Notes: generated by a model not told the origin, from the sequence alone. DNA of 64,000 nucleotides from Actinomycetota bacterium (GCA_046728975.1 JBKPFU010000073.1:5095-69094), one strand, 5' to 3'. Counted from the first letter of the stretch, positions 57,341-63,169 are shown. A program made the numbers and translations.

Positions 57341-57949
57341 CTGATCCCCCAGAACCGAGCCTTCTTCGACCTCTACTCGCGCGCGTCCGCGAACACGGTC
57401 GAGATCGCTCGCCTTCTCGTCGAGCTGCTCGACCGGTTCCCCGATGACGGCGCGGAGCTGATCACGCGGATCAAGGAGCGCGAGCACGAGGGTGACCACC
57501 TCACGCACGAGGTCGTCGACCTGCTCAACCGGACGTTCGTGACGCCCTTCGATCGCGACGACATGTACCGACTCGCGGGAGCGCTCGACGACATCTGCGA
57601 CCACGTCGACGAGGCGGCCGACAACCTCGGCATCTTCGGCGTGGAGCGCGTCCCCGACAAGGCCCGCGCCCAGGCCGAGGTGATTCTTCGCGCTGCCCGT
57701 AACCTCGACGAGGCGATCGGCCGGCTCGAAGGCTTCAAGGACTCAACGGCGCAGCTGATCGAGCTCCGCCGCCTCGAGGACGAGGGCGATCGCCTCGTCC
57801 GCGACGCCATCGCCGAGCTGTTCCAGTCGGGGCAGGATCCGATCGCGATCATCCGCTGGAAGGACATCCACGAGCGGCTCGAGGAGGCGGTCGACGCGCT
57901 CGAGCGCGCCGCCGACGTGCTCGAGGCAATCCTGGTCAAAAACCGCTAA
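57341..57949 (+). CDS. DUF47 / PhoU-like Pit accessory protein (start uncertain)
   Basis: The conserved N-terminus ..IPQNRAFFDLY.. has no ATG/GTG/TTG nearby. In-frame candidates are CTG 57341, ATC 57332 and ATT 57311. TTG at 57206 would overlap the divergent gene by 68 nt. Confidence 0.7.
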   Translation: MIPQNRAFFDLYSRASANTVEIARLLVELLDRFPDDGAELITRIKEREHEGDHLTHEVVDLLNRTFVTPFDRDDMYRLAGALDDICDHVDEAADNLGIFGVERVPDKARAQAEVILRAARNLDEAIGRLEGFKDSTAQLIELRRLEDEGDRLVRDAIAELFQSGQDPIAIIRWKDIHERLEEAVDALERAADVLEAILVKNR

Positions 57950-58942
57950 TTGGAGGACATCCTTCTTGTCACCGTCGTGGTGGTGGCGCTCGGGTTCGAC
58001 TTCACGAACGGCTTCCACGACACGGCGAACGCGGTCGCAACGTCGGTCTCGACGCGTGCGCTGTCGCCCCGGCTGGCCGTAGTGGTCGCGGCGGTGGCGA
58101 ACCTCGCCGGCGCGTTCGTCACGACCGCGGTCGCGAAGACCGTCGGCAAGGGGATCATCGACCCGGCCCTCGCGACCTCCCAGACGGTTCTGGCGGCGCT
58201 CGCCGGAGCGATCACCTGGAACCTCCTCACCTGGTGGTTCGGCCTCCCGTCCAGTTCGTCGCACGCACTGATCGGGGGCCTGGTGGGGGCGGCGCTGGCC
58301 CAGTCGGGATCAAGCGGCGTCGAGTGGCACGGCCTCGCCCACAACGTCGCCATCCCGGCCGTGATCGCGCCGGCGATCGCCTTCGCCGGCGCGTTCTTGC
58401 TGCTGCTCGCGATCTACTGGCTGCTCGTCTGGATCACCCCCGGCCTCGCGAACCGCACCTTCCGGCTCGGCCAGCTCGGCTCAGGCACCTGGATGGCCTT
58501 CACGCATGGTGCAAACGACGCGCAGAAGACGATGGGCGTGATCACGCTGGCGCTCGTGACCAGCGGCCACCAGGAGGAGTTCGATCACATCCCGACGTGG
58601 GTGATCGTGGCCGCGGGCCTCGCGATCGCGGCCGGAACGTACGTCGGAGGCTGGAGGATCATGCGGACGCTCGGCCAGCGCGTCTTCAGCATCGAGCCGC
58701 CGAGCGGCTTCGCGGCGCAGGCGACGGCCGGCGTCACGATCTACGCCGCGACGAAGTACGGCTACCCGCTCTCGACGACACACGTGATCTCGGGCGCGGT
58801 CATGGGCGCCGGCGCGACCAAGCGACTCTCGGCCGTCCGCTGGGGCGTCGCCGGGAACATCGTCGCCGCCTGGATCCTGACCGTCCCCGCCGCCGCGCTC
58901 GTGGCCGCCGCGTTCTACTGGCCCGTCGTCGCGATCTTCTAA
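57950..58942 (+). CDS. pit: PiT-family inorganic phosphate transporter
   Basis: TTG directly abuts the upstream TAA. Signatures GFHDTANAVATSV and THGANDAQKTMG. Confidence 0.9.
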   Translation: MEDILLVTVVVVALGFDFTNGFHDTANAVATSVSTRALSPRLAVVVAAVANLAGAFVTTAVAKTVGKGIIDPALATSQTVLAALAGAITWNLLTWWFGLPSSSSHALIGGLVGAALAQSGSSGVEWHGLAHNVAIPAVIAPAIAFAGAFLLLLAIYWLLVWITPGLANRTFRLGQLGSGTWMAFTHGANDAQKTMGVITLALVTSGHQEEFDHIPTWVIVAAGLAIAAGTYVGGWRIMRTLGQRVFSIEPPSGFAAQATAGVTIYAATKYGYPLSTTHVISGAVMGAGATKRLSAVRWGVAGNIVAAWILTVPAAALVAAAFYWPVVAIF

Positions 58943-58963
58943 CGCGGACTTACACTTCGATTC

Positions 58964-59767
58964 ATGGACGCGAAGCGCGACGCGTTCACCATCGCCCACA
59001 TCTCGGACATCCATTGTGGGGGGCCCGACTTCGTCCCCGGCTTGATGGAGCGCGCGATCACCGAGATCAACGACGTCGGGCCGAAGATCGTGATCTGCTC
59101 GGGGGACCTGACCACCTTCGGCTTCAAGCACGAGTACGCGATGGCGAAGATGTACCTCGACCGCATCAAGTGCGACTCAGTGGTGGTCATTCCGGGGAAC
59201 CACGACTCGCGGAACGTCGGCTACGTCCACTTCGAGGAGATGTTCGGGCCGCGGAACCACGTGCTGCGCGTCGACGGCGTCACCGTGGTCGCGGTCGACT
59301 CGACGGAGCCGGATCTCGATCACGGCCAGATCGGCCGCGGCCGCTACAAGTGGATCGAGGAGCAGTTCGCGGAACCGGCCGATCTGCGGCTCTTCGTGCT
59401 CCACCACCACCTGCTGCCGGTGCCGGGAACGGGGCGCGAGCGGAACATCGTCTACGACGCCGGTGATGCGATCGAATGCCTCCAGCGCGCCGGCGTCGAT
59501 CTCGTCCTCTCGGGCCACAAGCACGTCCCGTATGCCTGGCGGCTGGAGAACCTCTTCATCGTCAACGCGGGCACGGTCTCGTCCCATCGGCTGAGGGGTA
59601 AGACCCGCCCCTGCTACAACCTGATCGAGATCAGCGAGAACCACGTCGACGTCTGGCGGAAGTACCCGTTCCACGGGTCGGAGCGGATCATTCAGTTCTC
59701 GACCGAGACGCTCGAGTTCGAGAAGTACACGGCCCGGATCGAAGGCGAGGTGACGACTCGGTCGTGA
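58964..59767 (+). CDS. Calcineurin-like metallophosphoesterase
   Basis: 267 aa. Motifs ISDIHCG, SGDLT, GNHD, VLHHH and GHKH. Confidence 0.8.
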   Translation: MDAKRDAFTIAHISDIHCGGPDFVPGLMERAITEINDVGPKIVICSGDLTTFGFKHEYAMAKMYLDRIKCDSVVVIPGNHDSRNVGYVHFEEMFGPRNHVLRVDGVTVVAVDSTEPDLDHGQIGRGRYKWIEEQFAEPADLRLFVLHHHLLPVPGTGRERNIVYDAGDAIECLQRAGVDLVLSGHKHVPYAWRLENLFIVNAGTVSSHRLRGKTRPCYNLIEISENHVDVWRKYPFHGSERIIQFSTETLEFEKYTARIEGEVTTRS

Positions 59768-61853: not shown

Positions 61854-62860
61854 CCGAGACCGCCCAGGAGCGTGAAGTCCGCGCCGAAGCCGGAGCGGCC
61901 GCGTACTGCCTGTGCGAGAGCTTCGCGCGGGTGACCGAGCGCGCCGCTCTTTCCGGCGCGCGCTGGCTCGGTCGGGACGACCAGGAGGGCGCCGAGAGCG
62001 ATGCGTCTTCCTCGATGCGTCAAGCGCTCGCGACGCTGCCGATTGACGGCCGGATCGTGATCGGCGCCGGAGGGCAGTCGAGCGGGCTGGAGACGGGCGA
62101 GCGGATCGGCGTGGGAGGGATGGAGGTCGACCTCGCGCTCGATCCCCTCGAAGGCCGCGGCGTCGTCGCCCGCGGCGGCACCGGGGCGATGTCGATGGTC
62201 GCGGTCGGCGATCCCGGGACGTTCCAGATGCTTCCCGACATGTACATGCGGAAGATGGCCGTCGGCCCACGCGCACGCGGGGCAATCGACCTGCGGCGCC
62301 CGATCGAGGACAACATCCGGGCGATCGCCGACGCCTTCGGGCGGAGCGTGAACGACGTGACGACGATCGTGCTCGACCGGCCGCGCCATCACGACCTGAT
62401 CGAGGAGATCCGCGCCGCGGGCGCGCGAATCAAGCTGATTCAGGACGGCGACGTCACTGCTTCGATCTCGGCCGCCGTTCGCGGAACGAACGACCATCTC
62501 GCTGTCGGGATCGGCGGCACGCGCCAGGCGGTACTTGCCTCCGCCGCGTTGCGGTGTCTCGGCGGTGAGCTGCAGGCTCAGCTCTGGCCGACGACGCGGC
62601 GCGAGATCGAAGCGGCGCGTGAGTCCGGCATCGACGATCCGGAGCGGATTTTCACGACGGAGGACCTCGCGCCGGGCGAGGTGATCATGGTTGCGACCGG
62701 CGTGTCCAACGGCGACATCCTCCGCGGCGTCCGTTTCCTCGCCGACAGCGCACGCACGAACTCGATCGTGATGTGCACGCGCTGCAACTGGGTGCGGTTC
62801 GTCGACGGGATCCACTTCTTTTCCCGCGAGCGGCGCGAGGACGTGCGCCTGCTCGGCTAG
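61850..62860 (+). CDS. glpX: Class II fructose-1,6-bisphosphatase GlpX
   Basis: GTG at 61850 forms a GTGA overlap upstream. Blocks VTERAALSGARWLGRDD, LALDPLEG and GGTRQAVLASAALRCLGG. Confidence 0.85.
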   Translation: MTETAQEREVRAEAGAAAYCLCESFARVTERAALSGARWLGRDDQEGAESDASSSMRQALATLPIDGRIVIGAGGQSSGLETGERIGVGGMEVDLALDPLEGRGVVARGGTGAMSMVAVGDPGTFQMLPDMYMRKMAVGPRARGAIDLRRPIEDNIRAIADAFGRSVNDVTTIVLDRPRHHDLIEEIRAAGARIKLIQDGDVTASISAAVRGTNDHLAVGIGGTRQAVLASAALRCLGGELQAQLWPTTRREIEAARESGIDDPERIFTTEDLAPGEVIMVATGVSNGDILRGVRFLADSARTNSIVMCTRCNWVRFVDGIHFFSRERREDVRLLG

Positions 62861-62869
62861 CATCGAGGC

Positions 62870-63169
62870 ATGCCGACAAGGGACGACGTCGTCGAGGCGC
62901 TGCGCCAGGTCGAGGACCCGGAGCTCGGTATGGACATCGTCGAGCTCGGGCTCCTCTACGACGTCGAGGTGGAGGACTCGAAGGTGAAGGTCGTCTACAG
63001 CCTGACCTCGATGGGGTGCCCGGCCGGACCGATGATCCAGCAGAACGTGGAGGAGGTCGTGCGCTCGATGCCCGAGGTCTCGGACGTCGAGACCGAGCTC
63101 ACCTGGGATCCGCCCTGGACGCCCGAAAAGATGTCCGACGACGCCAAGTTCATCCTTGGCTTTGGCTAA
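62870..63169 (+). CDS. DUF59 / SufT-like Fe-S assembly domain protein
   Basis: 99 aa. Blocks VEDPELGMDIVELGLLY and TSMGCPAG. Lies 9 nt after the glpX stop, with gagg in between. Confidence 0.8.
   Translation: MPTRDDVVEALRQVEDPELGMDIVELGLLYDVEVEDSKVKVVYSLTSMGCPAGPMIQQNVEEVVRSMPEVSDVETELTWDPPWTPEKMSDDAKFILGFG

Follow-up and report, generated by a model that had tools for sequence, protein, structure and literature searches.

Does the gene cluster at positions 57341-63169 of a 64,000-nucleotide stretch of Actinomycetota DNA (GCA_046728975.1, JBKPFU010000073.1:5095-69094; this whole stretch is hereafter called the window) encode a bacterial pathway for cyclic 2,3-diphosphoglycerate (cDPG), a solute that has been said to occur exclusively in hyperthermophilic methanogens (PMC10690619)? 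The cluster carries homologs of cDPG synthetase (cDPGS) and of 2-phosphoglycerate kinase (2PGK), and a first-pass annotation had read it as a seven-gene operon in which phosphate import is hard-wired to an archaeal-type cDPG pathway. Our analysis leads to a narrower proposal, toward which we lean with modest confidence. Judging from homology and gene order, four of the genes, coding for a metallophosphoesterase (MPE), cDPGS, a 2PGK-family kinase and the fructose-1,6-bisphosphatase GlpX, may form a bacterial module for making and turning over cDPG that has its own promoter; to this module a phosphate importer gene pair (DUF47-PiT) is accessory.

The 395-aa protein at the center of the cluster is a homolog of cDPGS. 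A phmmer search gave a clear, full-length match to the crystallized Methanothermus fervidus enzyme (8ORU/8ORK, E 2.6e-72), as well as a match to 9SXB (E 2.3e-62), which bears out the original assignment. Pfam and NCBIfam profile searches of this protein returned only a weak match to CbiA; the identification was made through the PDB sequences and through precomputed hits to PF27272 (CpgS_N), which are recorded on an identical protein in GCA_046729595.1 and on all close homologs. Overall identity to the characterized M. fervidus enzyme is ∼43% (395 vs 460 aa). The structural study of that enzyme (PMC10690619) showed that K145 and R146, together with E45 (with K46) of the partner subunit, contact 2,3-diphosphoglycerate (2,3-DPG), that K149, T150 and D208 are P-loop/Mg residues, and that E404 and K406 are further catalytic or nucleotide residues. 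M. fervidus E45, K46, K145, R146, K149, T150, D208, E404 and K406 align with E37, K38, K117, R118, K121, T122, D176, E345 and K347 of the window protein. All nine named substrate, Mg and catalytic residues are thus identical, and an alignment of 53 diverse homologs shows them to be invariant or nearly so. The Walker A motif GxxGxGK[T/S] reads GTGKRVGKT in the window protein, and its K117, R118, K121 and T122 are invariant in all 53 homologs. The window enzyme is predicted to catalyze the reaction 2,3-DPG + ATP -> cDPG + ADP + inorganic phosphate (Pi).

The gene that follows encodes a 301-aa P-loop kinase. Its best model is PRK04220 (the NCBIfam 2PGK equivalog; COG2074), which matches over the full length with an E-value of 9e-83 and outscores the mevalonate-3-phosphate kinase model by 278 to 93 bits. 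The PRK04220 alignment spans both an ATP-cone-like N-terminal part, where the match to the ATP-cone model itself is weak (21.6 bits vs a cut-off of 25.8), and the part that contains the P-loop (GGATGTGKST), where matches to AAA_33 and AAA_18 fall under their own cut-offs. A search of PDB sequences with the kinase returned chance-level adenylate-kinase matches and no solved relative. The earlier designation of this protein as a 2PGK holds as far as full-length family membership is concerned, but not at the equivalog level, as its score of 278.1 bits lies under the PRK04220 equivalog cut-off of 343. Because of this score, and because the family includes enzymes with other substrates, we file the protein as a 2PGK-family kinase and take its substrate from context, which suggests that it phosphorylates 2-phosphoglycerate (2PG) to 2,3-DPG.

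When the window was re-read, the seven co-directional open reading frames on the plus strand and all of the junctions described for them were found in place; what did not stand is the first-gene start at 57341, which is a CTG. The features of the region are as follows.

57332..57949, plus strand: PhoU-like DUF47 gene (PiT accessory protein); PF01865, 85 bits; start candidates ATC 57332, CTG 57341 and TTG 57206
57950..58942, plus strand: PiT-family inorganic phosphate transporter, 330 aa; PF01384, 322.7 bits; TTG start
58951..58956, plus strand: -10-like hexamer TACACT (TANNNT), 7 nt before the MPE ATG; candidate promoter of a leaderless MPE-cDPGS-2PGK-GlpX transcript
58964..59767, plus strand: calcineurin-like MPE, cytoplasmic, 267 aa; PF00149, 75.4 bits; candidate cDPG hydrolase or 2,3-DPG phosphatase
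59764..60951, plus strand: cDPGS homolog, 395 aa; PDB 8ORU/8ORK, E 2.6e-72; PF27272 CpgS_N
60948..61853, plus strand: 2PGK-family P-loop kinase, 301 aa, with ATP-cone-like N-terminal region; PRK04220, E 9e-83, 278 bits
61850..62860, plus strand: class II fructose-1,6-bisphosphatase GlpX, 336 aa; TIGR00330, 274.4 bits; PF03320, 354.8 bits
62870..63169, plus strand: DUF59/SufT-like Fe-S assembly protein, 99 aa; PF01883 FeS_assembly_P, 79 bits

Profile searches directly confirmed six of the seven family assignments (all but cDPGS), with GlpX passing the TIGR00330 equivalog cut-off (274.4 vs 259.3 bits). The TAA stop of DUF47 immediately abuts the TTG start of PiT (57947-57952), and 21 nt separate PiT from the MPE start codon, ATG 58964. 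The next three junctions are overlaps, namely GTGA at 59764 (MPE/cDPGS), ATGA at 60948 (cDPGS/2PGK) and GTGA at 61850 (2PGK/GlpX), after which a gap of 9 nt leads to the DUF59 start, ATG 62870. This packing is not a product of chance, as identical overlaps recur in related genomes. The region consists of two units, a conserved four-gene core (58964-62860) and the DUF47-PiT pair upstream of it.

The closest homologs of the window cDPGS are found in metagenome-assembled genomes of Gaiellaceae and Gaiellales, and we compared gene order across 84 Gaiellales loci. MPE directly precedes cDPGS in all 82 loci where both were found (median gap -1 nt), as does cDPGS 2PGK in each of 83 loci (median -4 nt). 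2PGK is followed by GlpX in 70 of the 81 loci with room for it, the median gap again being -4 nt (71 loci). The suspicion, drawn from the window, that the cDPGS and 2PGK genes are more than stray homologs is borne out, since the two are coupled in translation and have been conserved together. The seven-gene arrangement as a whole did not emerge as a conserved unit; the core is MPE-cDPGS-2PGK, usually followed by GlpX or transaldolase (TAL).

The cDPGS family extends well past the relatives of the window. It comprises more than 8000 clusters at 90% identity; at 50% identity and E <= 1e-30 there are 261. It is present in at least 587 GTDB species genomes, many of them Gaiellales, and the coupled operon is placed in at least several hundred bacterial species. 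In two loci of 42-44% GC (L085 and L086) MPE-cDPGS-2PGK lies between thrB and rho, within the surroundings lysA-hom-thrC-thrB ... rho-rpmE-prfA-prmC. This surrounding order is that of Mycobacterium tuberculosis, and it is only because rho, prfA and prmC stand in it that we call the two loci bacterial. L090 (GC 69%) has MPE-cDPGS-2PGK followed by a transaldolase/FSA gene, and L089 (GC 75%) has cDPGS-2PGK on a short contig. In L091 (GC 35%) cDPGS-2PGK is followed by a CBS-domain gene and then by a tandem-MPE fusion, both halves of which are homologous to the window MPE; a 5'-nucleotidase-type MPE lies upstream, and a Por_Secre_tail protein encoded nearby suggests Bacteroidota. The same order, cDPGS-2PGK, CBS-domain protein and a two-MPE fusion of ∼500 aa, occurs in L091, L147, L148, L154 and L170.

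Scanning metagenomes with another cDPGS clade as the anchor yielded 80 loci. MPE, 2PGK, GlpX or TAL is adjacent to cDPGS in 45 of them, distributed as ∼15 MPE-cDPGS-2PGK-TAL(-Rho), ∼12 MPE-cDPGS-GlpX-Rho, 4 MPE-cDPGS-2PGK-GlpX(-Rho) and 4 cDPGS-2PGK-CBS-MPE2, with the rest partial or in other orders. The MPE-cDPGS-GlpX-Rho arrangement, in which no 2PGK homolog lies within 6 kb, belongs to one high-GC bacterial clade (L103, L112, L126, L134-L136, L138-L140, L146, L149 and L150). The other 35 loci carry cDPGS alone; 21 of these share the synteny of Methanothermobacter, whose cDPGS has neither MPE nor 2PGK nearby, and none of the 21 has MPE, 2PGK, GlpX or TAL adjacent. Many Methanobacterium and Methanobrevibacter sequences also contain cDPGS (P0412, P0417, P0442 and P0511; loci L098-L132; locus GC 25-41%), always alone and in a Methanothermobacter-like neighborhood, and carriers are thus not just hyperthermophiles. 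From the cross-lineage loci we define the bacterial module as MPE and cDPGS, usually with 2PGK, and with GlpX or TAL/FSA as a frequent fourth gene.

The MPE, which had been treated as a passenger in the first-pass annotation, is instead the most consistent partner of cDPGS across distant bacteria. Its match to PF00149 (75.4 bits) far exceeds the gathering cut-off of 21.5, and the dimetal motifs DxH, GD, GNHD, HHH and GHxH are all present in its translation (SDIH, SGDL, GNHD, LHHH and SGHKH, respectively). MPE orthologs with 34-62% identity adjoin cDPGS in distant bacteria, and in L085, L086 and L090 the MPE is more conserved than the synthetase itself (49-62% vs 35-43% identity). Metallophosphoesterases such as LpxH, ApaH and ADPRibase-Mn cut diesterified pyrophosphates, which is the type of bond found in cDPG. 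A named cDPG hydrolase gene was not found in the literature that we searched. The genomic association makes the MPE a candidate cDPG hydrolase or 2,3-DPG phosphatase.

If these assignments are correct, the kinase would phosphorylate 2PG to 2,3-DPG, and the synthetase would then spend ATP to close the intramolecular pyrophosphate ring of cDPG. The MPE would either reopen cDPG to 2,3-DPG, or dephosphorylate 2,3-DPG to 2PG or 3-phosphoglycerate and Pi, and carbon and phosphate could in this way flow back into gluconeogenesis, the pathway of GlpX. cDPG would accordingly serve as a mobilizable reserve of phosphorus, carbon and energy and as an anionic solute. This agrees with the picture in methanogens, where cDPG branches from and re-enters gluconeogenesis, counts among the major solutes that contain carbon and phosphorus, acts as a store of both and as counter-ion to K+, and is degraded by a hydrolase activity (PMC1224877, PMC4302986). 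A more far-reaching version, which we put forward only tentatively, is that cDPG made by MPE-cDPGS-2PGK, with the MPE as cDPG hydrolase, is widely used by mesophilic soil bacteria to store phosphorus, carbon and energy or as an anionic protectant, and that it is no archaeal thermoadaptation. On that version, the module would range over hundreds of Gaiellales, other deep-branching Actinomycetota and some Bacteroidota-like lineages. Should the product indeed be cDPG, this solute, known so far from archaea of hot anaerobic habitats, would also belong to mesophilic soil bacteria, these bacteria would have a phosphorus pool besides polyphosphate, and the breakdown of cDPG would have a concrete candidate gene. 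Current efforts to produce cDPG biotechnologically (PMC12136491) would also gain mesophilic variants of the enzymes.

The proposal that the core has its own promoter comes from the gap between PiT and MPE. In 62 of the 82 Gaiellales loci, the in-frame MPE start is preceded at a distance of 6-8 nt by a hexamer of the form TA[N][AGT]CT, and 65 of the 82 have the hexamer near the start. At the background frequency, 1.8e-4 per position, 0.04 loci would be expected. TAGAGT-type variants account for most of the other loci. The hexamer is kept whether PiT or orf121, a small gene described below, lies upstream, while the remainder of the spacer is not conserved. Such a distance between hexamer and start codon is typical of leaderless transcripts in Actinomycetota. 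Since the hexamer is conserved and has this geometry, we infer that MPE-cDPGS-2PGK-GlpX has a promoter of its own, upstream of which the PiT pair was inserted, and that the four genes are probably transcribed from TACACT (58951-58956) as a leaderless mRNA. A sigma-70 consensus scan found no promoter, and an Rfam scan gave no match in the region. There is no terminator-like site between PiT and MPE, the lone such site (58366-58393) being inside PiT, and transcription could therefore also read through from PiT.

This last observation bears on the reading of the first-pass annotation, that all seven genes form a single operon in which DUF47-PiT import is functionally hard-wired to cDPG synthesis, as a phosphate-buffering module that includes DUF59. 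We regard this as unlikely. The genes are indeed co-directional with gaps of 0-21 nt in the window, the closest relatives share this layout and its insertion point with several other Gaiellales subclades, and in Methanothermobacter thermautotrophicus cDPG is a phosphorus reserve (PMC1224877, PMC4302986). However, of the 75 related loci that have room for DUF47-PiT, only 17 carry it, 14 of them with the pair adjoining MPE, and none of the non-Gaiellales operon types has it. Mapped onto the cDPGS tree, the pair shows a patchy pattern, though it is always found at the same insertion site, with PiT always paired with DUF47 (median gap 7 nt, 17 loci). These synteny counts led us to reject the pair as a core member. 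The importer is thus lineage-specific rather than hard-wired, and the genes downstream of it retain their own -10-like element in the gap. DUF47-PiT is best described as an accessory placed upstream in this lineage, outside of the conserved module. PiT is a low-affinity phosphate importer, and its presence would fit storage of surplus phosphate in those lineages that carry it.

The state of DUF47 itself also argues against the seven-gene operon. In relatives DUF47 begins (M-A-R-L.., with ATG or GTG) four codons upstream of the CTG at 57341, at a position that is ATC (57332) in the window, where no canonical start codon is thus present. The only canonical in-frame start is TTG 57206, from which the public record calls a 247-aa version and which overlaps the divergent orf121. 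For these reasons the true start is uncertain, and the window gene could have a non-canonical start or be impaired.

The linkage of DUF59 is loose. Of 73 loci, 68 have this gene downstream, but the gap to it has a median of 58 nt and exceeds 300 nt in 21 of 62 cases. In many relatives inserted genes separate it from the core, in L076 it lies on the other strand, and the non-Gaiellales operon types lack it. Its score against the SUF-associated model TIGR02945 (99.7 bits) is under the equivalog cut-off of 143.4, and only the general PF01883 model passes. On the synteny counts DUF59 was rejected as a core member and, contrary to its earlier placement in the operon, it is probably a loosely linked neighbor that is outside of the pathway.

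Several observations weigh against the proposal that the MPE-cDPGS-2PGK-GlpX module makes cDPG. Having a synthetase homolog does not prove the product, as Thermococcales encode the synthetase, yet cDPG has never been detected there (PMC7511516). The kinase falls under its equivalog cut-off and belongs to a functionally mixed family that includes, for example, mevalonate-3-phosphate 5-kinase. The ∼12 MPE-cDPGS-GlpX-Rho metagenome loci have no 2PGK within 6 kb. Among solved proteins, those closest to the MPE are phosphodiesterases at only E 1e-10, and its proposed substrate is a guess. The cDPG hydrolase activity of M. thermautotrophicus was reported to be membrane-bound (PMC1224877), whereas the window MPE has no obvious membrane segment. 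Finally, gene order within Gaiellales must partly reflect inheritance, because unrelated neighbors (an M23 peptidase gene, hpt and orf121) also keep their order across this group.

An alternative is that the enzymes have diverged in substrate, so that the locus makes another phosphorylated or cyclic-pyrophosphate product, or 2,3-DPG as an end product (e.g. as cofactor or regulator), and no bacterial cDPG exists. The sub-threshold score and mixed family of the kinase, the bacterial clade that lacks an adjacent 2PGK, the Thermococcales precedent and an identity of only ∼43% to the characterized enzyme are all in line with such divergence. We nevertheless consider it doubtful, as every contact to 2,3-DPG, Mg and the transferred phosphate is conserved in the window cDPGS and is invariant or nearly so in the 53 homologs, the 2PGK model is far ahead of the mevalonate-3-phosphate kinase model, and kinase and synthetase are coupled in every Gaiellales locus. 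That the region is a chance neighborhood of unrelated housekeeping genes, kept in one order by shared ancestry as its equally ordered M23 peptidase, hpt and orf121 flanks might suggest, is highly improbable and already contradicted by the cross-lineage comparison, in which MPE, cDPGS and 2PGK occur together in differing contexts, at GC contents of 35-75% and in differing gene orders, and by the conserved stop/start overlaps.

The surroundings of the module contain further features. orf121 (56908-57273, minus strand) encodes a 121-aa protein without a Pfam match and in Gaiellales always lies between hpt and the cDPG module; it is also found upstream in loci L145 and L162. Between orf121 and DUF47 is the motif GGTAGCA[AG]CGGnT[CT]CGGA[CT] (57274-57295, plus strand), which stands beside the orf121 start in most Gaiellales loci while the spacer around it varies, and which may be a shared regulatory site or the promoter/leader of orf121. 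An Nramp/MntH-type metal transporter is encoded two genes upstream of the module (55055-56344, minus strand), with a patchy occurrence at this position in relatives, and might conceivably be linked to the need of the MPE for metal. Elsewhere in the window there are three large paralogs (2841-6056, minus strand; 20852-24073, minus strand; 48549-51503, plus strand) that combine a zinc-ribbon/adenylate-guanylate cyclase part, AAA_16 (a STAND-type ATPase) and TPR/MalT-like repeats.

We also asked where the bacterial synthetase comes from, as the pathway had been termed archaeal-type. In neighbor-joining trees of cDPGS with 100 bootstraps, shallow clades are well supported (Methanobacteriales 100, operon types B and C 100, Gaiellaceae core 80), but deep nodes lie below 50-60, and for this reason a direction of transfer cannot be stated. 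The window cDPGS is 50-54% identical to the enzymes of other bacterial operon types and 38-43% identical to archaeal ones, while the Methanobacteriales cDPGS is 50-53% identical to bacterial enzymes and 49% identical to the archaeal-looking 9SXB. A recent transfer from an archaeon to Gaiellales is not supported by these comparisons. The data are compatible with an archaeal origin but do not show one, and the term archaeal-type fits the place of discovery of the pathway rather than its origin. The second solved cDPG synthetase, PDB 9sxb (436 aa), is without the N-terminal insertion of the M. fervidus enzyme and groups with representative P0291. We considered whether 9SXB might be an already characterized bacterial enzyme and rejected this, as its sequence groups with that unlabeled representative, away from Gaiellales.

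The literature that we searched contains no paper on a characterized bacterial cDPG system, in agreement with what had been stated at the outset, and none that connects Gaiella or another bacterium with cDPG or with one of the two enzymes. The JGI annotation already names the genes cDPG synthetase and 2-phosphoglycerate kinase. The homology as such has thus been captured by automatic annotation, and what appears to be undescribed is a bacterial operon with a dedicated MPE.

The closest known system is the archaeal pathway of M. fervidus and Methanothermobacter (8ORK/8ORU), which has both enzyme families and the link to gluconeogenic intermediates in common with the window. The archaeal cDPGS likewise shares its P-loop, the 2,3-DPG-binding Lys/Arg, the N-terminal Glu/Lys and the Mg ligands. 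The archaeal hosts are thermophilic methanogens, whereas the host here is a mesophile-type soil actinobacterium (Gaiellales) in which the product is predicted from the genes. In addition, the Methanobacteriales cDPGS gene stands alone, whereas the window gene is part of an overlapping operon with MPE and GlpX. The cDPG hydrolase of M. thermautotrophicus reopens cDPG to 2,3-DPG (Sastry 1992 and van Alebeek 1994, cited by PMC1224877), which is the same catabolic step as that proposed for the conserved MPE; the former activity is membrane-bound, whereas the MPE looks soluble and its role is predicted. The nearest solved relatives of the MPE, the class III cyclic-nucleotide phosphodiesterase Rv0805 and the glycerophosphodiesterase GpdQ, have the dimetal motifs in common with it, but similarity is low (E 1e-10 to 1e-7) and the gene context of the MPE points to a phosphoglycerate-derived substrate. 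The DUF47 (PhoU_div)-PiT phosphate uptake unit is present here as the same tightly coupled two-gene pair, inserted directly upstream of the cDPG module in an arrangement seen only in some Gaiellales. By functional analogy, the proposed module resembles ppk-ppx storage operons in its logic, with synthesis and hydrolysis of a phosphate-rich reserve encoded together. The protein families are unrelated, and the reserve is a polymer in the ppk-ppx case, whereas here it would be a small cyclic pyrophosphate.

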